A DNA stretch of 64,000 nucleotides from a virus (lineage: Duplodnaviria; Caudoviricetes), in the IMG/VR virus record IMGVR_UViG_3300045526_000254, positions 27,013-91,012 of that record; one strand, given 5' to 3'. This document shows positions 1 through 63,690 of the stretch, one piece after another. The notes below the pieces were generated by a model that saw only the letters and a list, made by a program, of their open reading frames with translations, was not told where the DNA came from and did no database searches. Each line of letters begins with the position of its first letter. Within the stretch, counting starts at the first letter, position 1. Both the position numbers and the translations under genes were made by a program.

Positions 1-1117
1 AATTTCCTCTGGTCAAAGTACAAAGGTAATTATTGTATCTACACCTCGCGGTATGAACCATTTTTACCGCATGTGGCATGATGCAGAACGTGGAAAGAAT
101 GAGTATATACCAACAGATGTTCATTGGTCTGAAGTTCCTGGTAGAGATGAAAAATGGAAAGAACAGACGATTGCAAATACATCTGAACAGCAGTTCAAAG
201 TTGAATTTGAATGTGAATTTTTAGGATCAGTTAATACATTAATCAATCCGGCAAAACTTAAAAATTTTGTTTACGATGATCCTATAAAAAGAAATGCCGG
301 ACTAGATGTTTATGAAAATTCAAAGAAGGAAAACAATTATCTCATTACTGTTGATGTTGCTCGTGGAATTGGAAATGACTATTCTGCATTCATTGTTTTT
401 GATATCACCAATTTCCCCTATAAAGTCGTAGCAAAATATAGAAATAATGAAATAAAACCTATGCTATTTCCGAGCATAATTAATGAAGTTGCAAAGGGAT
501 ATAATAATTCTTGGATTCTAATAGAGGTAAATGATATCGGAGATCAAGTCGCAAATATTTTACATTTTGATCTCGAATATGATAACATTTTAATGTGCTC
601 CATGCGTGGAAGAGCTGGACAAATTGTGGGATCTGGATTTAGTGGTAAAAAATCCCAATTGGGTGTTCGGATGACTGCCGCAGTTAAAAAATTAGGATGT
701 TCTAATTTGAAAACTTTAATGGAGGATGATAAATTAATAACAAATGATTATGACATTATTTCAGAACTGACGACATTTGCACAAAAACATAATTCATTTG
801 AAGCAGAAGAAGGATGCAATGATGACTTGGCCATGTGCCTGGTAATTTTTTCTTGGTTAGTCGCTCAGGACTATTTTAAAGAAATGACGGACAATGATGT
901 TCGTAAAAGAATTTATGAAGAGCAAAAAAATCAAATTGAGCAGGATATGTCTCCATTTGGATTTATTTCTGATGGTTTAGAAGATCTTAATGTAATCATC
1001 GATAATGATAGCGGAGATAGATGGATTTTTGCAGACTCAAAAAATCAGAACAATCCATTAGAAGTATGGAATATTGATGAATATGGTGATAGATCTTATA
1101 TGTGGGAATATCGATAG
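1..1117 (+). CDS. gp17: Terminase large subunit, C-terminal part (5' truncated by the window)
   Basis: Frame is open from the window start (STKVIIVSTPRGMNHFY); nuclease motifs TVDVARG and NDDLAMCL; lies upstream of the sheath gene. Confidence 0.95.
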   Translation, partial: ISSGQSTKVIIVSTPRGMNHFYRMWHDAERGKNEYIPTDVHWSEVPGRDEKWKEQTIANTSEQQFKVEFECEFLGSVNTLINPAKLKNFVYDDPIKRNAGLDVYENSKKENNYLITVDVARGIGNDYSAFIVFDITNFPYKVVAKYRNNEIKPMLFPSIINEVAKGYNNSWILIEVNDIGDQVANILHFDLEYDNILMCSMRGRAGQIVGSGFSGKKSQLGVRMTAAVKKLGCSNLKTLMEDDKLITNDYDIISELTTFAQKHNSFEAEEGCNDDLAMCLVIFSWLVAQDYFKEMTDNDVRKRIYEEQKNQIEQDMSPFGFISDGLEDLNVIIDNDSGDRWIFADSKNQNNPLEVWNIDEYGDRSYMWEYR

Positions 1118-26989: not shown

Positions 26990-28050
26990 TTATGTTATCT
27001 CCAGAAAACGCTATTTGGGCAGCGAATCAATTTATAGAGTATTATTCTAAGTTTAATAGAATTGATGACTATATGAGATTCGTTAAGAAAAGCAGAATTT
27101 TAAACTCTGCTGGCAAATTATTTGGACCTGAAGATGAAATGTTTTCAGATTTTTCTTTAGATCCAAATGACATGTCTTTCACAATTCATGAAGTAGATAC
27201 AGGATCTAAACCAAAAACTAAGTATAATCAGGAATTGTACTCTGAAATTTTAAATCTCACGGCATCAAATCCTATTGAAGAGGCAATTCCAGGAAGAACA
27301 ATAAAGTGGATTGTTACTGAGGATAATACAAAAAAAGTTGTAGGTGTGGTTAGGTTTGGATCACCGACAATTAATTCAAAACCAAGAAATGATTATTTTT
27401 GTGAGGTATTACCATTATCGAAAATTAATCATGAATTTGTAATGGGATTTAATATTGTTCCTGTTCAACCTTTTGGATACAATTATCTTGGTGGAAAACT
27501 ACTTGCATTGTTAGCATCATCTAATGAACTCAAACGACAATTTGATTCAAAGTATGGAACTGATCTTCATTACTTTGAAACAACTTCATTGTACGGTACA
27601 ACGAAAGGGGTATCCATGTATGATGGTCTTAAACCTTATCTTCGACACATAGGAGATACTGAGAGTAAATTTTTACCACTTTTTCATGATGACTATTTTC
27701 GTGAAATGTTCTGGTGGTTTAATAACAATGCTAACGGTGGAGAACGACTTATTTCTGCTGATAAGTCATCGAAGAAATTGAAGATTCAAGTCAAGATGAT
27801 TTCAATCATCATAAAGTCCCTTCAAGATGCTTCAAAACTACATGAGTTTAAATCTTGCATTGAACATGCCAAATCTCTCACAGAAAAAAAGAGATACTAC
27901 ATTTCTGAGTTTGGATATGAACCTGAAGAGGTTATTTCTTGGTGGAAAATAAAAGCATCTAAACGATATAAAAAACTTAAAGAAGAAAATCGTATTAGAA
28001 CAAATTTAGAATTATGGACTGTAGACTCTAATTTGCAAATCATTAGATAG
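26986..28050 (+). CDS. Conserved cyanophage protein (possibly DUF4338/DruA-like fold)
   Basis: VPVQPFGYNYLGGKLLALL, FETTSLYG; between gp44 and gp62. Confidence 0.6.
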   Translation: MIMLSPENAIWAANQFIEYYSKFNRIDDYMRFVKKSRILNSAGKLFGPEDEMFSDFSLDPNDMSFTIHEVDTGSKPKTKYNQELYSEILNLTASNPIEEAIPGRTIKWIVTEDNTKKVVGVVRFGSPTINSKPRNDYFCEVLPLSKINHEFVMGFNIVPVQPFGYNYLGGKLLALLASSNELKRQFDSKYGTDLHYFETTSLYGTTKGVSMYDGLKPYLRHIGDTESKFLPLFHDDYFREMFWWFNNNANGGERLISADKSSKKLKIQVKMISIIIKSLQDASKLHEFKSCIEHAKSLTEKKRYYISEFGYEPEEVISWWKIKASKRYKKLKEENRIRTNLELWTVDSNLQIIR

Positions 28051-52826: not shown

Positions 52827-53252
52827 TTAGCTAAGTTTAGAAGACTTAAGAACCACACCATAAATTCTTTCAGATTCACTCATATAAAAGGTTCCACCAA
52901 TATTCGTATTATAATACTCTTCATTCATTAATACATTACGATTAAATTGTTCATAAGTTTCATAATAACTCATAGATTTCTTATGAGGACAGAGATAAAG
53001 TATTTCACGAAGAAACTTATCCTGTCCTAAAATTTTAATGTCTTCATGTAATTCATCACAAGAACCAAAGTAGTTTCTCCAATCAGATTCTTCTGTTTTT
53101 CTTCTTCCTGTTTTTTTATTTTTTTGTCTAGTCCAGAAGTGTTTTTTACCAATATATTTTTTATCATTTACTAAGTTTGTAATTAAGTAAACAAATCCTT
53201 CCATTCCTTTAGGGACTTCATCAAGTTCTTCACCGTTGTACTGCCATTTCAT
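52827..53252 (-). CDS. GIY-YIG nuclease (Seg-like)
   Basis: GFVYLITN..KKYIGKK, YYNTNIGG. Confidence 0.85.
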   Translation of the reverse strand: MKWQYNGEELDEVPKGMEGFVYLITNLVNDKKYIGKKHFWTRQKNKKTGRRKTEESDWRNYFGSCDELHEDIKILGQDKFLREILYLCPHKKSMSYYETYEQFNRNVLMNEEYYNTNIGGTFYMSESERIYGVVLKSSKLS

Positions 53253-53334
53253 AAGAGTCTTTTATCGGTATTTATGATTGACTCCTCGGAGAGATGTGAT
53301 AGACTTCTAAGAGTTCATCAAATTTCTAAATATT

Positions 53335-53520
53335 ATGGAAACACTAGTGGAAACTCTTCGTCATTCACATAATTGGGCAATTGATCGTATTCATCTTTTG
53401 TGCGAAAAATATGAAGATGAAAATGCCTATGCGATTCAATCTGAATTTAGTGAATGGTTGAATCCTAATATTCCAGAACATGATGTATTTTCATTAGAGT
53501 ACATAGGAGAAAACACATGA
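53335..53520 (+). CDS. Small hypothetical protein
   Basis: 61-aa ORF coupled to the next gene. Confidence 0.6.
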   Translation: METLVETLRHSHNWAIDRIHLLCEKYEDENAYAIQSEFSEWLNPNIPEHDVFSLEYIGENT

Positions 53521-54212
53521 GAATCGATCTTCATAACTTTTTTAAACATTTTGATGAAAATAATCCAAAACATGTTGAGGCAGTAGAAAAACTTGAAAAA
53601 ATACTCGTAGTAAAGGCACCAGAAGAACTTGATGATACTTCTGATTGGGTTAAGACGTTTAGAGTAAAACCATCTATTGCCGGTGTTTTGAATGTTCCTT
53701 TTTATCCGCAAACTGATAATTATAGGGATGCACAAAGAACTTGTAATTCTTCGGCATGTGCGATGTGCCTAGAGTATTTTAAACCGGGCACTCTTCAGGG
53801 AGCAAAAGGCGATGATGCCTATGTTAGAAAAGTATTTGCTGTTGGTGATACAACGGATCATACCGTTCAGACAAAAGTTCTATCATCTTATGGTGTTTCT
53901 TCACGCTTCAGTTACAATCTTGGGTTTGCTGATCTTGATCGTGAGCTTGCCGCTGGGAGACCTGTTGTTATCGGGATCTATCATAGGGGTACTTTATCTG
54001 CACCTTCTGGTGGGCACATGCTTGTAGTCATTGGTAAGAAAGGTGAAGATTATATTGTTAATGATCCTTATGGTTCTTTAAATGATGGTTATACCGGATC
54101 AGTATCGAATGGTAAGGGTGCCGTCTATAAGAAATCTGATCTGACTTATCGTTGGTTGGAAAAAGGTAAAGATAAGACCGGATGGGGACGAATCTTTGAT
54201 ACAAAAAAGTAG
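53517..54212 (+). CDS. C39-like cysteine peptidase (0-frame product of the frameshifted endolysin)
   Basis: Q....CNSSACAM (Cys), GGHMLVV (His), VNDPYG (Asp). Confidence 0.82.
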   Translation: MRIDLHNFFKHFDENNPKHVEAVEKLEKILVVKAPEELDDTSDWVKTFRVKPSIAGVLNVPFYPQTDNYRDAQRTCNSSACAMCLEYFKPGTLQGAKGDDAYVRKVFAVGDTTDHTVQTKVLSSYGVSSRFSYNLGFADLDRELAAGRPVVIGIYHRGTLSAPSGGHMLVVIGKKGEDYIVNDPYGSLNDGYTGSVSNGKGAVYKKSDLTYRWLEKGKDKTGWGRIFDTKK

Positions 54213-54691
54213 ATCGTCCCACTACATCATCATATAGTAGTGGGGTAGAATTAATCAAAGAATTTGAAAGTTGTCATTTAAATGCCTATCCGGATCCAAG
54301 AACTAATAGAGAACCCATCACAATAGGATGGGGAAGTACAAAAGATTTTGACGGATCTCCTTTCAAAATGGGTAGAGTTATTACTCAAAAATATGCCGAT
54401 TCTTTATTTGAGTTTGATTTAAAACATAGATTTTTACCGGTGCTTCAAAAAATTCCATATTGGAATGAAATGAATGAGAATCAACGAGGGGCACTTCTTT
54501 CCTTTGCCTATAACTTAGGTGCTCACTTTTATGGTAGTTCAAACTTCAATACAATAACCAAAGTTCTTAAAAATAAAGAATGGGATAAGGTTCCCGATGC
54601 AATGTATCTCTATCATAATCCGGGAACAAATGTAGAAGGGGGATTAATAAGAAGAAGAATTGCCGAGGGAAATTTATGGAAAAGATTATGA
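54203..54691 (+). CDS. Phage lysozyme (GH24-like) domain, reached by -1 frameshift
   Basis: GVELIKEFESCHLNAYPDP..ITIGWGST, ALLSFAYNLG, GLIRRRIAEG; no start codon before the catalytic region. Confidence 0.8.
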   Translation, partial: KKVDRPTTSSYSSGVELIKEFESCHLNAYPDPRTNREPITIGWGSTKDFDGSPFKMGRVITQKYADSLFEFDLKHRFLPVLQKIPYWNEMNENQRGALLSFAYNLGAHFYGSSNFNTITKVLKNKEWDKVPDAMYLYHNPGTNVEGGLIRRRIAEGNLWKRL

Positions 54692-55646: not shown

Positions 55647-56009
55647 ATGCTTTTAAAAACAATTTCAATTTTTGCCATTTTTACCGCAGGATTTGTACCA
55701 CTTAATGCAAATGCCACAACAAGGTGCTCTCTTGCGTCACATTATGGTATTGGTGATGGGTATCATGGACAAACTGCCGCAAATGGAGAGATTTATAATG
55801 CATATGGAATGACTGCGGCACATAAATCTCTTCCTTTTGGGACTAGACTAAGGGTTACTAATCAAGATAATGGTAGATCTGTTGTAGTGAGAATTAATGA
55901 CAGAGGCCCATATATTGCCGGAAGATCCCTTGATTTGTCTTATGGTGCATTTTCCTCTATTGCATCTCCAGGACAAGGAGTTGCTAGAGTTTGTTATAGT
56001 GCGGCATAA
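55647..56009 (+). CDS. RlpA-like (DPBB) lytic transglycosylase with signal peptide
   Basis: [31 protein letters not shown]. Confidence 0.88.
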
Positions 56010-57025: not shown

Positions 57026-57139
57026 CACCTGGGCGTCGATACCCTATAATACTCTCATAGGCAGCGGGGATCCAAACTTCGCGTAAGACCTGCCCCTCCC
57101 ATGCCTCTCAACGATGCACAAACAGAGAGGGTTCTTTAT

Positions 57140-57213
57140 GGGCTAGTAACTCAGTGGAACAGAGTAACGCTCTTCTAAAGCGTGAGTCGTTGGTTCGAAT
57201 CCAACCTAGCCCG
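57140..57213 (+). tRNA. tRNA-Arg(TCT)
   Basis: GGGCTAG/CTAGCCC; loop CTTCTAA. Confidence 0.92.
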
Positions 57214-57474
57214 TTGGAGTATTATACTCCATATATAAAAGTGATAGAGGGTAAGTCCCTGTTATATCCTTATGAGATATATCACACTTACTCCATCAAA
57301 TCGTAGGAAGTGCAACACCTCTCTCTGGTTAAGACTGGGTGATGTGAAAGGTGATTCTGCCCGCACATAGAAATCCCTCCTACCATCACTTGACAATCCA
57401 AACCAACTCTGGTATGATTGTCTTATGTTAAAGGGTATGATATTATAAATAAATGTATCATACCTTAAAGCAAA

Positions 57475-57828
57475 ATGCCATATAAAAGTAAGGAAGACTA
57501 CAAAAACTGGGAAAAAGGATATCGAAATGGATATCGCCAAAGACCGGAAGTAAAACAAAAGTTATCCGAACAGAGTAAATTGCGACGAGAACGAAATAAA
57601 AATTTTGTTCTTGAAAAAATGACTCCCTGTATTTCATGTGGCGAAAGCGATCCTGTCGTTATTGATTTTCATCACTTAGATGGATCACAAAAAGATAAAG
57701 GCATATCGCAAATGATGAATAGTAGTTATTCATTAAATAAAATTGAAGAAGAGATAAGCAAATGCGTTTGTTTATGTTCTAATTGTCATCGTAAAGTTCA
57801 TGCTGGAACTTTAGAATTGCGGGTGTAG
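57475..57828 (+). CDS. HNH endonuclease (paralog of 61830)
   Basis: CISCGE..DFHHLD..CLCSNCHRKVH. Confidence 0.85.
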   Translation: MPYKSKEDYKNWEKGYRNGYRQRPEVKQKLSEQSKLRRERNKNFVLEKMTPCISCGESDPVVIDFHHLDGSQKDKGISQMMNSSYSLNKIEEEISKCVCLCSNCHRKVHAGTLELRV

Positions 57829-57889
57829 TTTAGAGGTAAAATTCCTGCCTTCCAAGCAGTGGTCACGGGTTCAATTCCCGTCACCCGCT
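57819..57889 (+). tRNA. tRNA-Gly(TCC)
   Basis: GCGGGTG/CACCCGC; loop CTTCCAA. Confidence 0.9.
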
Positions 57890-57942
57890 CTTGACTTTTT
57901 TCCAAAAAAGTCTTATAAATAAAACATACTTGTTAAACAAAA

Positions 57943-58056
57943 ATGACTCGCTTATCGCAAAAACCCCAATTTACATATCCACTCGGTAATATGTCCGATT
58001 GGAATCTTTGTGTGCATATTGCGAGTGAGTCCCCTTCTGCTCTTATGGAAGAATAA
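57943..58056 (+). CDS. Small ORF (37 aa) between a late promoter and a terminator
   Basis: TATAAATA 57914; hairpin plus T run at about 58080-58113. Confidence 0.4.
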   Translation: MTRLSQKPQFTYPLGNMSDWNLCVHIASESPSALMEE

Positions 58057-58241
58057 AAATCTTCAACCATAAAAGCAAAAGGGGAGAGAAACCAAAAGTT
58101 TCCTCCCCTTTTTTGTTGGTTGTGACAGTTTCACAAGTGTCCACCAATCTCCCCCCAGAGACCAAACGGTGGTATTCTAATCAAGTGGTCGAGAGAGACC
58201 ACGCAGAACATCGACAACTTAATATTTATCCTATATTATCT

Positions 58242-58313
58242 GGGTCGTTGGCAGATCGGTTTATGCACCCGGCTTTTAACCGGTAGAGAGAGGTTCAACT
58301 CCTCTACGACCCA
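58242..58313 (+). tRNA. tRNA-Lys(TTT)
   Basis: GGGTCGT/ACGACCC; loop CTTTTAA. Confidence 0.88.
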
Positions 58314-58314
58314 T

Positions 58315-58367
58315 TAGATGATTCAGCAATTTCTTACTTTCTTTTGGGTAGAAAAAACAATCATCTA
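58315..58367 (+). ncRNA. CAGCA hairpin motif, copy 1
   Basis: tagatgatt/aatcatcta 9-bp stem enclosing CAGCAAT. Confidence 0.5.
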
Positions 58368-58372
58368 GTTTT

Positions 58373-58463
58373 GGGAGAGTGGCTACTGTTGGCAATATGT
58401 GTAGTCCGTGTCTGTAAAACACGTACATAGGAACCATCGGGGGTTCGATTCCCTCCTCTCCCA
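58373..58463 (+). tRNA. tRNA-Tyr(GTA)
   Basis: GGGAGAG/CTCTCCC; loop CTGTAAA; enlarged D-loop. Confidence 0.88.
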
Positions 58464-58492
58464 CTTGACAGCATATATAGTGTTGTCTATAA

Positions 58493-58566
58493 CGGAATGT
58501 AGCTCAGTTTGGTAGAGCCCTGGTTTTGGGAACCAGTTGTCGCAGGTTCGAATCCTGTCATTCCGA
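58493..58566 (+). tRNA. tRNA-Pro(TGG)
   Basis: CGGAATG/CATTCCG; loop TTTGGGA. Confidence 0.92.
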
Positions 58567-58637
58567 CTTGAGAATGGTCCACACATTCTCCATTGATGCG
58601 GTTCGACTATACCGCTTTAACAAAATGGTCGCCAAAT

Positions 58638-58710
58638 GGGGTCTTAGCTCAGTTGGTAGAGCGCCTGCTTTGCAAGCAGGATGTCAGGGGTTCGAGTCCC
58701 CTATTCTCCA
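58638..58710 (+). tRNA. tRNA-Ala(TGC), two acceptor mismatches
   Basis: Loop TTTGCAA; G3:U70 present. Confidence 0.85.
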
Positions 58711-58728
58711 TTGGTACTTTATGTACCA

Positions 58729-58845
58729 TAGAAGGAAAAAGATCATGGTTCGAATCCAGATCCAGCACTAATGGAGCCCGTCAGGGGCATTCCCTAACCA
58801 TGGGTTGCGGGGTAGTTTAAGTGGACTAAAAACAGTTTCCTTCTA
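58729..58845 (+). ncRNA. Circularly permuted tRNA-like RNA (YrlA/Y RNA-like candidate)
   Basis: 10-bp closing stem, TTCGAAT T-loop, capped acceptor stem, GG D-loop, in permuted order. Confidence 0.6.
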
Positions 58846-58848
58846 ATT

Positions 58849-58923
58849 GCGGATTTAGTTCAGTGGTAGAACGCAACCTTGCCAAGGTTGATGTCATCGG
58901 TTCAAATCCGATATTCCGCTCCA
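58849..58923 (+). tRNA. tRNA-Gly(GCC), CCA encoded
   Basis: Loop TTGCCAA. Confidence 0.9.
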
Positions 58924-58924
58924 T

Positions 58925-58997
58925 GGCCCATTCGTCTAGTGGTCTAGGACACATGCCTGTCTAGTATGTTACAGGAGTTCGAATCTCCTATGGGTCG
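58925..58997 (+). tRNA. tRNA-Asp(GTC)
   Basis: GGCCCAT/ATGGGTC; loop CTGTCTA. Confidence 0.88.
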
Positions 58998-59112
58998 TCG
59001 TCCCTATACTTTGTCAGTTTTGTATGTGGGCAGTATTGACAAACTGATAGAAATATCATAGTATTATAATCTTCTTATATAAGATGTATAATTAAATAAT
59101 GATATTTCTTAT

Positions 59113-59197
59113 GGAGAGGCAATCCGATTGGCGACGGAAGCGGTCTTGAAAACCGTAGAGTGTAAAAGCCTTGGGGGTTCGACTCCCCCTCTCTCCG
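59113..59197 (+). tRNA. tRNA-Ser(TGA)
   Basis: Loop CTTGAAA; long variable arm. Confidence 0.9.
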
Positions 59198-59263
59198 TTG
59201 GGTTGAGCATCAAGTAAAGACTGAGCAAGACAGAAGATGTTTGAGACTCTCAGTTACCCATAT

Positions 59264-59335
59264 GGTCCTGTCGTCTAATGGTTAGGACGCTGCCCTTTCA
59301 AGGCGGAAACGAGGGTTCAAATCCCTTCGGGACTT
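59264..59335 (+). tRNA. tRNA-Glu(TTC)
   Basis: GGTCCTG/CGGGACT; loop CTTTCAA. Confidence 0.9.
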
Positions 59336-59388
59336 TTCATTTTGGTTCGTTTCCCATATAAATAAAACTATACGGGAGTTGAACTTAA

Positions 59389-59892
59389 ATGAAAAACAAA
59401 CATCATATCATTCCAAGATATATGGGTGGTAGCGATTCTCCAGAAAATTTAGTTGAAGTAACTTTGACACAACACGCTATGTTTCATTATTGTAACTGGC
59501 GTCTTTGGGGAAATAAAGAAGATGAGATTGCTTGGAAAGCTCTTTCGGGGCAAATCTCCATAGAAGATGTTATCCTTGAATCAAGAAGACTTGGTGGGCG
59601 CAATAGTCATATCAAGCATCCTGAAATGAGACATAAAAATCTCAAAAGAACAGGAAATCCTCACACACTATGGAGAGGTACTCCAGTTGAAAGAAGAGAA
59701 GAAATTTCTAAAAAAGTTCAAAAAACAAAAGGCACTGAAATTAAGTGTGTTAATAATTTAACTGGAGAAATTAATTCTTTTCCTTCATTAAAATCTGCTA
59801 GAAGTTATTACCAAATTGGTATGACTACTATTAGAAAATTGTATTCTGGAGAAATAAATTCTTATAATGGAATTTCTGTAATTAAATCTTAA
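59389..59892 (+). CDS. HNH homing endonuclease
   Basis: KHHIIPRYMGGSDSPENLV...HAMFH; C-terminal NUMOD1-like region. Confidence 0.85.
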   Translation: MKNKHHIIPRYMGGSDSPENLVEVTLTQHAMFHYCNWRLWGNKEDEIAWKALSGQISIEDVILESRRLGGRNSHIKHPEMRHKNLKRTGNPHTLWRGTPVERREEISKKVQKTKGTEIKCVNNLTGEINSFPSLKSARSYYQIGMTTIRKLYSGEINSYNGISVIKS

Positions 59893-59896
59893 ACGA

Positions 59897-59976
59897 TGGG
59901 ATATAGCATAACGGAAATGCAGCTGGCTGTTAACCAGTGTCGGAAGACAATGTAGGTTCGAATCCTACTATCCCAG
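59897..59976 (+). tRNA. tRNA-Asn(GTT) with an extra variable hairpin
   Basis: TGGGATA/TATCCCA; loop CTGTTAA; gtc-GGAA-gac arm. Confidence 0.85.
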
Positions 59977-59998
59977 TTGCCTACATAAGGCATAACAA

Positions 59999-60070
59999 CG
60001 GGGTGTAAGTCAGAGGTAGACGGCTTGCTTTGGGAGCAAGAAGGCAGAGGTTCGATCCCTCTCACCCCGA
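59999..60070 (+). tRNA. tRNA-Pro(TGG), second copy
   Basis: CGGGGTG/CACCCCG; loop TTTGGGA. Confidence 0.88.
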
Positions 60071-60074
60071 CTTT

Positions 60075-60148
60075 GGGGACATAGCTCCAATTGGTAGAGC
60101 ACACGCCTGAAGAGCGTGGTGTTATCGGTTCAAATCCGATTGTTCCCA
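60075..60148 (+). tRNA. tRNA-Phe(GAA)
   Basis: Loop CTGAAGA. Confidence 0.92.
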
Positions 60149-60150
60149 CT

Positions 60151-60310
60151 TGCCCTTGCCGTTGGTACGGTAACATAGGGTTCAACTTGATAAAGTAGTT
60201 TTAGATAGGTGTGTTGAACCCACACTGATAAGAACCTCCCTCGTAAGGAAGTCTTCTTGTACAAAACATCGAGTCTATGAAGAGTGGGATCATTCCCCAC
60301 CGAGGGTACA
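60151..60310 (+). ncRNA. About 160-nt multi-hairpin tRNA-like RNA
   Basis: 8-bp closing stem with four internal hairpins; last one has T-arm geometry. Confidence 0.55.
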
Positions 60311-60313
60311 CAA

Positions 60314-60385
60314 AGGAATGTAGCTCAGTGGTAGAGCACTCGGCTGATAACCGAGCGGTCACGAGTTCAAATCTCGTCATTCCTA
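60314..60385 (+). tRNA. tRNA-Ile(GAT)
   Basis: AGGAATG/CATTCCT; loop CTGATAA. Confidence 0.92.
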
Positions 60386-60387
60386 TT

Positions 60388-60460
60388 GAAACCGTAGCAC
60401 AAGTGGTAGTGTTGCTGGCATTATAGTCGGCGGTTGCAGGTTCAAGTCCTGTCGGTTTCA
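60388..60460 (+). tRNA. Atypical tRNA, probably Ile(TAT), with an 8-nt anticodon loop
   Basis: GAAACCG/CGGTTTC; good D and T arms; loop CATTATAG. Confidence 0.6.
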
Positions 60461-60523
60461 CTTTGGTATATTGTGTGAAGTGTGATATAATATAAATACT
60501 TATACTCACACAGTATACCATAT

Positions 60524-61048
60524 ATGGAAAACAGGAAACCAAACACAAAATGTTGCGTATGCGAGACTCCAATTTATAGGAGACCAAGTAATCTAAAAAA
60601 GACTAATGGTAAAGCATATTGCGGTCAAGATTGTTATGGAATTTCCTGTAGAAAAACAAAACCTTGTGTTGTTTGTGGGAAAGAAATTTTAGCATCGAAA
60701 CACTCAAAGACTTGTTCTAAAGAATGTTTTGATTCTTATTTGAAATCTTCTAATAGAAACTTTTCTCTTGGAAGAAAACCTGGAACTTCTACCAAATGGG
60801 GAACTCGTTCTTTCAGAAAAAGAATTCTAGAAGAAAGGGGCAACTGTTGTGAAGTTTGTGGTTATGACAAAATCCCAGTTTTGACTATTCATCATATAGT
60901 TGAAAGATACTTAGGTGGTGATGATTCTAATTCAAATCTTTTAGTTTTGTGTAGAAATTGTCACGGAGAAGTACATACTGGAATACTAAACAAAACAAGT
61001 GAAAGTTTTTCAAAATTACTTGAGGAAAATGCAGCTAAGTGGTCTTAG
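60524..61048 (+). CDS. HNH endonuclease with Zn-ribbon N-terminus
   Basis: CEVCGY..TIHHIVERYLGGDDSNSNLLVLCRNCHGEVH. Confidence 0.85.
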   Translation: MENRKPNTKCCVCETPIYRRPSNLKKTNGKAYCGQDCYGISCRKTKPCVVCGKEILASKHSKTCSKECFDSYLKSSNRNFSLGRKPGTSTKWGTRSFRKRILEERGNCCEVCGYDKIPVLTIHHIVERYLGGDDSNSNLLVLCRNCHGEVHTGILNKTSESFSKLLEENAAKWS

Positions 61049-61108
61049 CATCCGCCTGCTAAGCGGACTGTCAGTAAAATGGCAAAGGTTCGACTCCTTC
61101 ATTTTCCG
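61024..61108 (+). tRNA. tRNA-Ser(GCT)
   Basis: GGAAAAT/ATTTTCC; loop CTGCTAA. Confidence 0.88.
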
Positions 61109-61112
61109 CCTT

Positions 61113-61197
61113 GGAGAGTTGTCCGAGTGGATTATGGTGAGATCTTGGAAAGGTCTTGGGCGTAAAAACCCCAGAGGTTCGAATCCTCTACTCTCCG
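61113..61197 (+). tRNA. tRNA-Ser(GGA)
   Basis: GGAGAGT/ACTCTCC; loop TTGGAAA. Confidence 0.88.
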
Positions 61198-61201
61198 TTT
61201 T

Positions 61202-61273
61202 GGCAGTATAGTTCAGTGGTAGAACAGAAGATTCATACCCTTCTCGTCGGTGGTTCAATTCCACCTACTGTCA
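61202..61273 (+). tRNA. tRNA-Met(CAT), elongator-like
   Basis: Loop TTCATAC. Confidence 0.82.
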
Positions 61274-61274
61274 T

Positions 61275-61348
61275 GTGTAGGTAGCATAAATGGTTAATGC
61301 ACCTGATTGTGAATCAGGTTTATGCGGGTTCAAGTCCCGTCCTACACC
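61275..61348 (+). tRNA. tRNA-His(GTG)
   Basis: GTGTAGG/CCTACAC; loop TTGTGAA; C73. Confidence 0.9.
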
Positions 61349-61350
61349 CC

Positions 61351-61424
61351 GCCCGATTAGCTCAGTGGTCTAGAGCAATTGTCTAGTAAACAATAGGTCG
61401 TCAGTTCAAATCTGACATTGGGCT
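61351..61424 (+). tRNA. tRNA-Thr(AGT)
   Basis: attgt-CTAGTAA-acaat. Confidence 0.85.
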
Positions 61425-61428
61425 TCGG

Positions 61429-61503
61429 GTTCCAGTCGCCAAGTGGATTTAAGGCAAGAGATTGCAAATCTCTCATTCGTCGGTTCAAATCCGACCTGGA
61501 ACT
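61429..61503 (+). tRNA. tRNA-Cys(GCA)
   Basis: GTTCCAG/CTGGAAC; loop TTGCAAA. Confidence 0.9.
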
Positions 61504-61508
61504 CTCAT

Positions 61509-61582
61509 TGGGGAATCGTCTAATGGCAGGACACCGCCCTTTGAAGGCGTTTATCTAGGTTCGAGTCCTAGTTCCCCAGCCA
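61509..61582 (+). tRNA. tRNA-Gln(TTG), CCA encoded
   Basis: TGGGGAA/TTCCCCA; loop CTTTGAA. Confidence 0.9.
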
Positions 61583-61657
61583 GTCCGTGTAGCGCAATTG
61601 GTAGGAGGCACTATCTTGAGGGGGTAGACAGTGCGGGTTCAAATCCCGCCACGGACA
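61583..61657 (+). tRNA. tRNA-Leu(GAG), short variable loop
   Basis: Loop TTGAGGG; variable region ACAGT. Confidence 0.85.
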
Positions 61658-61729
61658 TTGCCAGTTTCCGAACTGGCACATCACTCTTGACCTTCGGGGC
61701 AATCGGTGGTATTCTAAGCAAGTGATTGA

Positions 61730-61804
61730 GGGCGTGTAGCGCAATCGGTAGGAGGCAACACCCTTAGAAGGTGTACAGTGGAGGTTCGAATCCTCTCACG
61801 CCCA
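61730..61804 (+). tRNA. tRNA-Leu(TAG), short variable loop
   Basis: Loop CTTAGAA. Confidence 0.85.
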
Positions 61805-61829
61805 TTACTCATAATTATGATAAATAGTT

Positions 61830-62225
61830 ATGAGTTATTTACAAGTTAATATGCCTAGAAAAAGAAAAACATCTGCGGATTGTAAGTTGATACGAGAATA
61901 TCAACGAAATTGGTTAAATGAAAAACTTAAAAATGATCCCGAGTACAAAGAAAGACATTATGAAAATCGAAGAAATCGAGCAAAACAAAACAGAGAAAAT
62001 TTAACTTCTTTGAAAGAAAGTAGTTCTTGTTCTTGCTGCGGCGAGTATCATCCATCATGTTGCATGGATTACCACCATTTAGATCCTAATATTAAGGAAA
62101 AAGGTGTAGCTCAAATGATACAAGGAAATTCTTGGAAAAAAATTCAAGAAGAAATTTCTAAATGTGTTTTGGTTTGTTCTAATTGCCATCGAAAAATACA
62201 CGAAGGTTTAATTACGCTCATTTAG
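61830..62225 (+). CDS. HNH endonuclease (paralog of 57475)
   Basis: CSCCGE..DYHHLD..VCSNCHRKIH. Confidence 0.85.
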   Translation: MSYLQVNMPRKRKTSADCKLIREYQRNWLNEKLKNDPEYKERHYENRRNRAKQNRENLTSLKESSSCSCCGEYHPSCCMDYHHLDPNIKEKGVAQMIQGNSWKKIQEEISKCVLVCSNCHRKIHEGLITLI

Positions 62226-62289
62226 CCATCTGGTGAAGGCAGCGTTCTCATAAAGCGCCGTAGGAAGAGTTCGATTCTCTCAATGAGCA
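62216..62289 (+). tRNA. tRNA with CAT anticodon (Met or lysidine-Ile2)
   Basis: GCTCATT/AATGAGC; loop CTCATAA. Confidence 0.82.
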
Positions 62290-62331
62290 CTTGACAATCT
62301 GAAGGTTCTACCTTACGATTGTCTCATACAT

Positions 62332-62406
62332 GTCCGAGTAGCGCAATCGGCAGGAGGCAACAGACTTAAAATCTGTACAGTGCGGGTTCGAATCCCGCCT
62401 CGGACA
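62332..62406 (+). tRNA. tRNA-Leu(TAA), short variable loop
   Basis: Loop CTTAAAA. Confidence 0.85.
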
Positions 62407-62409
62407 TAT

Positions 62410-62483
62410 GCTGGTGTAGCGCAACGGTAGGAGGCAACCGACTCAAAATCGGTACAGTGTGGGTTCGAATCCCTCCACCAGCA
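62410..62483 (+). tRNA. tRNA-Leu(CAA), short variable loop
   Basis: Loop CTCAAAA. Confidence 0.85.
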
Positions 62484-62602
62484 TTCCATCGGCAGATGGA
62501 AAGGCGAATTTAGGTGATGCATCACTTATAGGAGCCTGGAACGATTATCAATGGTTCGATTCCCTTCGCTCTGGTGAGGTGATAAAAGTTCCTTAATTTT
62601 TT

Positions 62603-62677
62603 GTTGGGTTGGTCTAATGGTAAGATGCAGGTCTCCAAAACCTTGCGATGGGAGTTCAAATCTCTCACCCTTCGCCA
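62603..62677 (+). tRNA. tRNA-Trp(CCA), U:U mismatches at acceptor pairs 2-3, CCA encoded
   Basis: Loop CTCCAAA. Confidence 0.8.
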
Positions 62678-62680
62678 CAT

Positions 62681-62755
62681 GCCCTGGTAACTCAGTGGAA
62701 GAGTGCTTCGCTACGAACGAAGAAGACGGGGGTTCAAATCCCTCTCAGGGTGCCA
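62681..62755 (+). tRNA. tRNA-Arg(ACG), CCA encoded
   Basis: Loop CTACGAA. Confidence 0.9.
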
Positions 62756-62788
62756 TTACAATCTAAATACGGTAGGTGCAAAAGAATC

Positions 62789-63259
62789 ATGGAATTAGTA
62801 GAACCACATTCAACAATATTGGTTCTGAACAGTTCTTATGAACCATTACATTTTACAAACTGGAAACGTGCAATTGTTCTTCTCTTCAAAGAGAAAGCAA
62901 AATTGATTACTAAACGTGTCATTCGTTTAGTCAGTTATGTGAAAATTCCTTTCACTCGTGGTAAAGACTCTTATCCTACAAGAGCACTTATCTATAAACG
63001 AGATGATCATGAATGTCAATATTGTGGATCTAAAAAAGATTTGACGATTGACCATGTGATTCCACGATCTAGAGGTGGACAAGATACCTGGGAAAACCTT
63101 GTTGCTTGTTGCTATAAATGTAATTTGAAGAAAGGAAATCATCTTCTCTCCGAAACAAATATGACTTTGAAGAAAACTCCAGAAGCACCTTTCAACCGTG
63201 TTTATTTGGATCTTCAAAAAAGTCGGGTTTCTGAATGGAGAGAGTATGTAATTGGTTGA
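62789..63259 (+). CDS. HNH endonuclease (McrA-like type)
   Basis: LVLNSSYEP, CQYCG..LTIDHVIPRSRGGQDTWENLVACCYKCNLKKG; start moved past tRNA-Arg. Confidence 0.88.
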   Translation: MELVEPHSTILVLNSSYEPLHFTNWKRAIVLLFKEKAKLITKRVIRLVSYVKIPFTRGKDSYPTRALIYKRDDHECQYCGSKKDLTIDHVIPRSRGGQDTWENLVACCYKCNLKKGNHLLSETNMTLKKTPEAPFNRVYLDLQKSRVSEWREYVIG

Positions 63260-63356
63260 GGACGGTTTCGGAACTGTCATAAGGTAGTTGACAAAACATC
63301 CTATATACCCTATAGTATAAAGGTAATCGGGGGTTTCACCTTAAACCCCTCAACAA

Positions 63357-63428
63357 CGTGGGGAAGTGTAACGGTTGCACAGAAGTCTCATAAGCTTCAG
63401 GAAGGAGGTTCAATTCCTCCCCCCGCCA
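63357..63428 (+). tRNA. tRNA with CAT anticodon, C1 mismatch, A at position 8
   Basis: gaagt-CTCATAA-gcttc. Confidence 0.75.
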
Positions 63429-63518
63429 TTGGAAATCTATCGATTTCCATATAAAAAAGTGATAGAGGGTAAGTCACCGTTATATCCTTATGAGGTATAT
63501 CGAACTTAATCTATCATG

Positions 63519-63590
63519 CCTTGGGTAGTCTAGTGGTCAGGACAGGCAGACAATGCACTTGGAGTTCGGGTTCGATTCCCGACCTGAGGA
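63519..63590 (+). ncRNA. tRNA-like RNA or pseudo-tRNA with aberrant anticodon arm
   Basis: Paired acceptor, D and T arms; anticodon stem only gca/tgc. Confidence 0.6.
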
Positions 63591-63597
63591 AAAAATT

Positions 63598-63669
63598 GGG
63601 AGGTTAACTCAGCGGTAGAGTTCTTGCCTTACAAGCAAGCAGTCACTGGTTCGAATCCAGTACTTCCCA
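63598..63669 (+). tRNA. tRNA-Val(TAC)
   Basis: GGGAGGT/ACTTCCC; loop CTTACAA. Confidence 0.92.
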
Positions 63670-63690
63670 TTGCGTCCTTGGACGCACAAT

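Follow-up and report, generated by a model that had tools for sequence, protein, structure and literature searches.

Programmed -1 ribosomal frameshifting on the heptamer A_AAA_AAG has been described in dnaX, where in E. coli the slippery site is followed a few nucleotides (nt) on by a 3' stem-loop and gives rise to the nested products tau and gamma, which share their N-terminal part; A_AAA_AAG is the most shift-prone heptamer when bacteria have a single tRNA-Lys, a property that depends on this tRNA being the sole one (as in about half of bacteria), and in E. coli it shifts far more readily than A_AAA_AAA or U_UUU_UUU (PMC5009743). In some dnaX genes it is the long product that results from the shift, the 0-frame stop lying right after the site, and one base change can swap which of the products needs the shift (PMC5009743). 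The present work deals with a locus of a T4-like cyanophage that carries the same signal; the stretch of DNA analysed (64,000 nt of a Caudoviricetes virus, positions 27,013 to 91,012 of the IMG/VR record IMGVR_UViG_3300045526_000254; hereafter the window) contains an open reading frame (ORF) for a C39-like peptidase, ORF1, followed in the -1 frame by a lysozyme without a start codon, and comparison with related phages makes it very probable that the locus is a dnaX/IS3-type -1 programmed ribosomal frameshift cassette joining two cell-wall hydrolase modules.

In the OrfA/OrfAB genes of the IS3 family (IS911, IS150) the upstream ORF likewise has A_AAA_AAG close to its end, a -1 shift there fuses it to a start-less downstream ORF and a 3' structure stimulates the shift (that of IS911 is mentioned in the review on dnaX frameshifting); the stimulators of this family, however, are often three-way junctions or pseudoknots, whereas a plain hairpin is found here, and the enzymes are those of transposition and not of lysis. 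The G/GT frameshift of phage tail assembly chaperones usually has no strong 3' structure. Known from lambda and many dsDNA phages (PMC5009743), it differs from the locus described here in that its products are structural chaperones and its heptamer is a different one. With respect to E. coli dnaX, the likeness of the identical heptamer, of the stem-loop and of the nested products is accompanied by differences, in that phage cell-wall hydrolases are concerned and that domains are not removed by the shift, which would instead append a complete second catalytic domain. Two polypeptides sharing a module are also obtained from one lysis gene in the endolysins Lys170 of Enterococcus and CD27L and CTP1L of Clostridium; there, however, initiation takes place a second time at internal in-frame starts and what is made in addition is a C-terminal binding domain, whereas here it would be the N-terminal part, produced via recoding. 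The class of mechanism is well known, and for its probable use in a lysis enzyme full-text literature searches returned no record, neither for a cyanophage lysin nor for any endolysin.

The Probable Frameshift Cassette

ORF1 is the sole long ORF at the junction in the ORF list, and its 3' end reads ttt gat aca AAA AAG TAG (54195-54212). The TGA upstream of the heptamer (see Table 1) closes the -1 frame, so that a fusion can be obtained only by a shift at the heptamer; beyond it the frame is open from 54200 to its terminal TGA, the earliest ATG, GTG or TTG in frame being the ATG at 54368. The hairpin, whose onset lies 7-8 nt 3' of the heptamer, is formed by the arms cccactac (54218-54225) and gtagtggg (54237-54244), to which RNAfold adds the pair U54217-G54245; its energy of -13.7 kcal/mol (z = -3.82) was equalled by 0 of 200 dinucleotide shuffles. 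The predicted trans-frame fusion has 391 amino acids (aa), with the junction peptide ...FDTKK continuing as VDRPTTSSYSSGVELIK, and the linker between heptamer and lysozyme consists of 13 Ser/Thr-rich residues, VDRPTTSSYSSGV. A slippery heptamer in register, an overlapping -1 ORF without a start and a conserved 3' structure are all present.

The initial annotation, made from the letters of the window, had proposed a dnaX/IS3-type shift at this place, and its description proved accurate: the length of 231 aa given for ORF1 and the coordinates of the heptamer and of the upstream TGA all hold, the stem arms and the 11-nt loop are exact apart from the additional U-G pair, and the fusion length of 391 aa is recovered. 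Likewise, the ORF list agrees with the claim that the -1 frame has no start before 54368 and that the codon of the putative catalytic Glu (54266-54268) precedes it, and tRNA-Lys(UUU) is, as had been noted, the only Lys tRNA, one among 29 tRNAs of the array.

According to the proposed mechanism, most ribosomes would read ORF1 to its TAG and release a 231-aa protein composed of an N-terminal module and the peptidase. A fraction of them would come to a pause at A_AAA_AAG owing to the hairpin and possibly to slow termination at the adjacent stop, which may itself aid the shift; the tRNA-Lys(UUU) molecules would then re-pair one base back, from AAA AAG to AAA AAA, and decoding would run on as GUA GAU CGU... 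through the linker into the lysozyme of the GH24 family. That tRNA-Lys(UUU) would read both codons of the heptamer is of relevance by analogy with the dnaX literature (PMC5009743). The long product would comprise N-module, peptidase, linker and lysozyme, and the lysozyme would exist solely as a fusion, thereby gaining the N-module. We infer that the shift takes place on the ribosome and that both products act in lysis.

The evidence that carries this reading is comparative. Among isolate phages, a search at the DNA level retrieved S-SRM01, S-PM2, S-CREM1, DSL-LC02/03, S-CAM7 and ACG-2014f, and IMG/VR was scanned three times, with the peptidases of the window, of ACG-2014f and of S-PM2 as queries, yielding 240 loci; after deduplication, isolates and IMG/VR together provided 126 unique peptidase-to-lysozyme junctions, nearly all with a -1 frame lysozyme, and 19 unique peptidase-only loci. 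The heptamer A_AAA_AAG is in frame in 93 of the 95 unique -1 junctions whose lysozyme has no ATG of its own (a figure free of conditioning) and in 0 of the 19 peptidase-only loci; its recurrence in these related junctions, which would need a shift, indicates that the arrangement is more than chance. The seventh position is G without exception, and no junction that would need the shift has a longer run of A (no A7). The 0-frame stop follows directly in 84 of the 99 unique junctions bearing the heptamer and one codon later in the other 15. In lineages in which the lysozyme has an ATGA- or GTGA-coupled start, the heptamer has decayed in some cases (L138, L215).

The codon before AAA AAG points in the same direction. 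Among the 99 heptamer junctions it is GCA in 48, GTA in 45, ACA in 4, and ATA and GAA in one each, so that the amino acid varies while the third base is A in 99 of 99, a count conditioned on heptamer-bearing sequences and used only for contrast with the neighbouring codons; for conserved Gly, Ile and Asp codons nearby, parsimony counts 28-35 changes at the third position on the same tree, whose total length is 12 substitutions per site. Elsewhere in the peptidase ORF, AAA and AAG are mixed as Lys codons.

The hairpin is conserved as a structure rather than as a sequence. A contiguous stem of 8-14 base pairs (bp) with its onset at most 10 nt from the heptamer is present in about 90 of the 99 junctions, and its score, set against the background of the same locus, falls in the top 5% in 88% of the junctions and in the top 1% in 57%; this stem-specific score was used in place of the minimum free energy over a fixed length of 60 nt, which proved too coarse (median 10th percentile). 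Across lineages the same site is taken by six or more unrelated pairs of stem arms, for example gttctattc/ggaatagaac, tcaacaccaca/tgtggtgttga, gccaactaac/gttggttggc, gagacatcaca/tgtggtgtct and ccccgtcact/agtagcgggg, besides cccactac/gtagtggg of this window; the 3' arm invariably falls within the codons that immediately precede the conserved lysozyme start (V/I)(E/D)LIK, and the 5' arm within the variable linker. In one group of 33 sequences, 92.5% of the cells pair, versus 31-51% when the partner is slid, double-change cells number 14 versus 3.5 in shuffles (0/500), and of the 13 pairs, 5 have changed in a compensatory manner. In S-PM2 the hairpin has -16.4 kcal/mol (z -2.8), and after the junction of S-SRM01, whose lysozyme has its own ATG, no hairpin is found (-2 kcal/mol, z +1.0). 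The two comparisons that the initial annotation had suggested, conservation of the heptamer and covariation of the stem, therefore both favour its reading: the heptamer is kept in S-PM2 and S-SRM01 as well as in the 93 start-less junctions, and the stem is maintained with different sequences and compensatory changes.

Some observations weigh on the other side. A pseudoknot was looked for in the window and not found, the best complement between loop and downstream sequence being 4 nt, matched by 495 of 500 shuffles. A Shine-Dalgarno-like stimulator, specific to dnaX, might be sought in the UGGGG located 14 nt upstream, but this sequence is fixed by Trp-Gly codons; the flanking wobble positions vary freely. 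The conditioning of the wobble count, mentioned above, also limits its weight. Moreover, the linker of 17 heptamer junctions contains an in-frame GTG or TTG, mostly inside the 3' arm of the hairpin, and in those lineages, though not in this window, independent initiation is conceivable.

Table 1: Features of the peptidase-lysozyme locus and its surroundings (positions in the window).
Feature	Positions	Strand	Basis or remark
ORF1, 231 aa, C39-like peptidase gene	53517-54212	+	ORF list; ends aca AAA AAG TAG
TGA, -1 frame, two codons 5' of slip site	54197-54199	+	sequence read
Slippery heptamer A_AAA_AAG, six A then G	54203-54209	+	X_XXY_YYZ register of ORF1
TAG, 0-frame stop adjoining heptamer 3' end; ends short product	54210-54212	+	
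Hairpin, 9 bp (U-G + 8 Watson-Crick), 11-nt loop 54226-54236	54217-54245	+	RNAfold
-1 frame extension, 160 codons + TGA (54689-54691)	54209-54691	+	linker then GH24 lysozyme
tRNA-Lys(UUU), sole Lys tRNA in window	58241-58314	+	within 29-tRNA array
141-aa ORF	52827-53252	-	opposite strand, just upstream of lysin operon
Sigma-70-like promoter-like site	53278-53305		TTGACT, 16 nt, TAGACT
61-aa ORF	53335-53520		overlaps ORF1 start through ATGA
120-aa lipoprotein-like ORF	55647-56009	+	RlpA-type DPBB domain
tRNA array, 29 genes	57139-63670	+	
tRNA unassigned by ARAGORN	60388-60461		two-base 'anticodon' ta

The Peptidase and the Lysozyme

ORF1 matches the Pfam family Peptidase_C39_2 (PF13529; E-value 1.7e-11, 45.3 bits versus a cut-off of 24), and its C39-like, papain-like peptidase domain covers residues 58-185 (53688-54071). 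Cys76 (53742-53744), His167 (54015-54017) and Asp183 are invariant across 85 relatives. A sequence search of PDB with ORF1 gave zero matches, for which reason a fold search was needed: the AlphaFold (AF2) model built from the 85 relatives, with a predicted local distance difference test (pLDDT) score of 85.4, is matched by Foldseek to the C39 peptidase domains of PCAT1/ComA, to the Bacillus C39-like protein 3erv and to the pseudomurein endoisopeptidase PeiR, with probability 1.00 for the C39 domains and PeiR. With the Pfam match, the fold and the conserved Cys and His all in agreement, ORF1 is a papain-like cysteine peptidase; its substrate would be peptidoglycan.

Residues 1-50 of ORF1 (53517-53670) form a separate small helical N-terminal module, for which, as for the other N-terminal modules, a Pfam search retrieved zero families. 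It has the consensus M.IDLHNFFK.YDE.NP.H... and stands at the N-terminus not only of the peptidase ORF but also of the separate lysozymes in DSL-LC02/03 (L004 2339-2500; L005 2299-2460), whose module of about 50 aa has 54-56% identity to the ORF1 N-terminus (E-values 2e-16 and 4e-16). The presence of the N-module on these stand-alone lysozymes suggests why the lysozyme of the window would be joined and not restarted, the fusion supplying the module. When the profiles of the ORF1 N-module and of the N-terminal domain of the L067-type stand-alone lysozymes were compared, hhalign gave a probability of 19% at an E-value of 0.0013.

The -1 frame encodes a complete GH24 phage lysozyme, in which the motif FE(G/S)...(A/S)Y.D...TIGWG is present. 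The Pfam profile Phage_lysozyme (PF00959) is covered from position 1 to 125 of 125 by residues 20-156 of the translation of 54200-54688 (E-value 5.5e-21, 75.6 bits versus a cut-off of 22.3), which places the domain at 54257-54667, and GH24 lysozymes of PDB align from residue 11 of the -1 frame, with E-values down to 1.5e-13. The Glu codon of the FE(G/S) motif lies 100 nt upstream of the first possible start, so that a product beginning at that ATG would lose the first ~37 residues of the domain including this Glu, which we take to be the catalytic one by analogy with Glu11 of T4 lysozyme. Across the complete trans-frame extensions, 94 of 94 are open for 155-171 aa with the GH24 catalytic motif intact, and the linker has between 10 and 23 residues. 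The 405 positions of the PHROG 3617 profile are spanned end to end by the two frames of the window (1-235 and 247-404); judged by this coverage, by the natural in-frame fusions described below and by the intact extensions, the fusion is probably a real, working protein. The name endolysin is suggested by the domain content and by the 'lysis' category in PHROGs.

Distribution of the Gene Layouts

The layouts found among the relatives are collected in Table 2. In the peptidase tree the frameshift layout occurs throughout a large clade of freshwater phages and S-PM2, inside which the other layouts have emerged on several occasions. The S-PM2 junction reads gat gca AAA AAG TAA, with the A6 identical in two S-PM2 records, and the predicted junction peptide is ...FDAKK continuing as VTSSTSR....

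Table 2: Arrangement of peptidase and lysozyme in related loci and state of the heptamer.
Layout	Examples	Heptamer
-1 lysozyme without own ATG (95)	this window, S-PM2	A_AAA_AAG in 93; U_UUU_UUU in S-CAM7; GTGA overlap start in L138
-1 lysozyme, ATGA-coupled start	S-SRM01, L167, L241, L215	kept in some; A7 in L215
Coupled start and extra N-terminal domain	L067 type	none
In-frame fusions	L094-L098, ACG-2014f, L226, L248	none in L094-L098; kept in ACG-2014f; A7 in L226/L248
Separate genes	DSL-LC02/03	none
Reversed fusion, lysozyme then peptidase	S-CREM1	none
Peptidase only (19 unique)	L042, L175 and others	none

Among marine relatives, L094-L098 and ACG-2014f have in-frame fusions whose junction, ...AKVE..., is near the predicted ...KKVE/D...; the fusions of marine cyanomyoviruses (ACG-2014f, PHROG 3617) have domains homologous to those of the window, in ACG-2014f with the same order and linker position, and differ from the locus of the window in that no recoding is needed. 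According to the initial annotation, homologues that are continuous fusions lacking both heptamer and hairpin would have refuted a programmed shift. Such fusions do exist, but only in a separate marine clade, and the break is not thereby shown to be an error: they indicate that the fusion is a working protein. Nested among frameshift relatives, L226 and L248 (both at 2184-2190) have A7 in place of A6, and their in-frame product is exactly the predicted trans-frame protein; their A7 are either real reversions or homopolymer assembly slips. The series composed of the frameshift, the A7 fusion and the heptamer within the ACG-2014f fusion matches, by analogy, the picture of swapped roles drawn for dnaX (PMC5009743).

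In ACG-2014f_Syn7803C8 (L086 2280-2286) and in L089-L092, A_AAA_AAG is retained in frame within a fusion of 405 aa. The -1 frame of ACG-2014f ends two codons after the heptamer (GUC UGA), and a shift would there yield the short form, with the layout reversed; the GC-rich stem near the heptamer is not significant (z -1.4) and the close relatives L094-L098 have no heptamer, so that the heptamer of ACG-2014f may be a relic. In S-CAM7 (NC_031927; L087 2259-2265, 2271-2304) the lysozyme is again start-less and in the -1 frame, the slip site is U_UUU_UUU within a T8 run, the 0-frame stop lies two codons past it, and the hairpin has -16.7 kcal/mol (z -5.5), the region being identical in three isolates; this T8 run could also slip at transcription. 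S-CREM1 (L003 1474-2655) encodes one protein of 393 aa, with the lysozyme at residues 13-149 followed by the N-module and by the peptidase at 223-351, that is, homologous domains in the opposite order and with no recoding.

The annotation of model cyanophages would be corrected by these observations. In GenBank/RefSeq, S-PM2 p156 is hypothetical and p157 is a 72-aa 'putative lysin', S-SRM01 has two endolysins, and the 'lysin' of S-CAM7 is, as p157, annotated as a stump, these stumps having 72-90 aa and the gene before them being labelled hypothetical. A lysis enzyme would be added to the short list of phage gene classes with programmed frameshifting, and the relatives provide a comparison series (frameshift, in-frame fusion, coupled, separate, reversed fusion) that allows one to test why a phage would fix the ratio of peptidase to peptidase-muramidase. 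Phages of this kind being abundant in lakes and sea, the site would be read in very many infections.

Alternative Explanations

The same protein could be obtained if RNA polymerase added one A to the A6 run, some of the mRNAs then carrying A7 and encoding the fusion in one frame. Such transcriptional slippage is the route used by Thermus dnaX (PMC5009743), the A7 genomes L226 and L248 occur naturally, and the T8 run of S-CAM7 at this place has a length more plausible for polymerase slippage. What it leaves unaccounted for is that exactly A6 followed by G is kept in 93 junctions, the run never being lengthened, and that a covarying stem 5-8 nt downstream is of the kind sensed by the ribosome, since that RNA is still to be synthesised when a polymerase is located on the run. 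Six A are, moreover, short for efficient polymerase slippage, and we consider this route very improbable. Equally slight is the probability of termination followed by reinitiation, or of a non-canonical start, near the TAG, which would give a free lysozyme in the -1 frame and no fusion. Coupling through ATGA or GTGA is indeed seen at this junction in S-SRM01, L167, L241 and L138, and a GTG or TTG occurs in the linker of 17 junctions; in this window and in 70 other unique junctions, however, the -1 frame from its upstream stop to the FE(G/S) Glu has neither ATG nor GTG nor TTG, and the first -1 codon past the heptamer is GUA. Reinitiation also leaves the strict A_AAA_AAG and the preceding wobble A unexplained, and its product would lack the N-module, which in DSL-LC02/03 is present on the stand-alone lysozymes themselves.

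That the break results from a one-base assembly error in the homopolymer, or that the lysozyme is a frameshifted pseudogene, is extremely unlikely for this locus and, by comparison with its relatives, refuted as an account of the series at large. Indels in homopolymers are a frequent error and the contigs L226 and L248 do show A7, but the break in the same frame recurs in more than 90 distinct assemblies and in isolates of three phages, with a site identical in the two S-PM2 records and in three isolates of S-CAM7, and all 94 complete extensions are open over 155-171 codons with an intact catalytic motif; the assembly error that the initial annotation had named as a risk is excluded by these independent assemblies and by the identical A6 of S-PM2. 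A programmed shift on the ribosome being the preferred reading, a further proposal concerns its purpose: short and long forms might assemble through the shared N-module into a lysin complex of fixed composition, the frameshift acting as a stoichiometry device and the need for both forms keeping the signal. The stand-alone DSL-LC02/03 lysozymes with their own N-module, the ACG-2014f fusion, in which a shift at the retained A_AAA_AAG would reach a -1 stop two codons on and yield the short form, and S-CAM7, which attains the same layout with a different heptamer, all fit this idea, which we put forward as tentative and rather unlikely.

Surroundings of the Locus

The 61-aa ORF that precedes ORF1 overlaps its start through ATGA, an arrangement of translational coupling, and the sole promoter-like site before it is the sigma-70-like one of Table 1. 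Of the T4-type late motif TATAAATA the window has 17 copies versus 5.5 expected, 16 of the 17 being on the + strand, and none of the 17 lies directly upstream of the lysin operon. At the position matching the 141-aa ORF, the annotation of S-SRM01 has a homing endonuclease. The contig ends about 300 nt past the window and the tRNA array, which includes tRNA-His(AUG), may be cut. At the same position as the DPBB ORF, S-PM2 has p160, 'lipoprotein precursor', and S-SZBM1 'rare lipoprotein A'; homologues are scattered widely across bacteria, as seen in a scan of genome contigs, and this ORF may encode a third cell-wall enzyme of the module.

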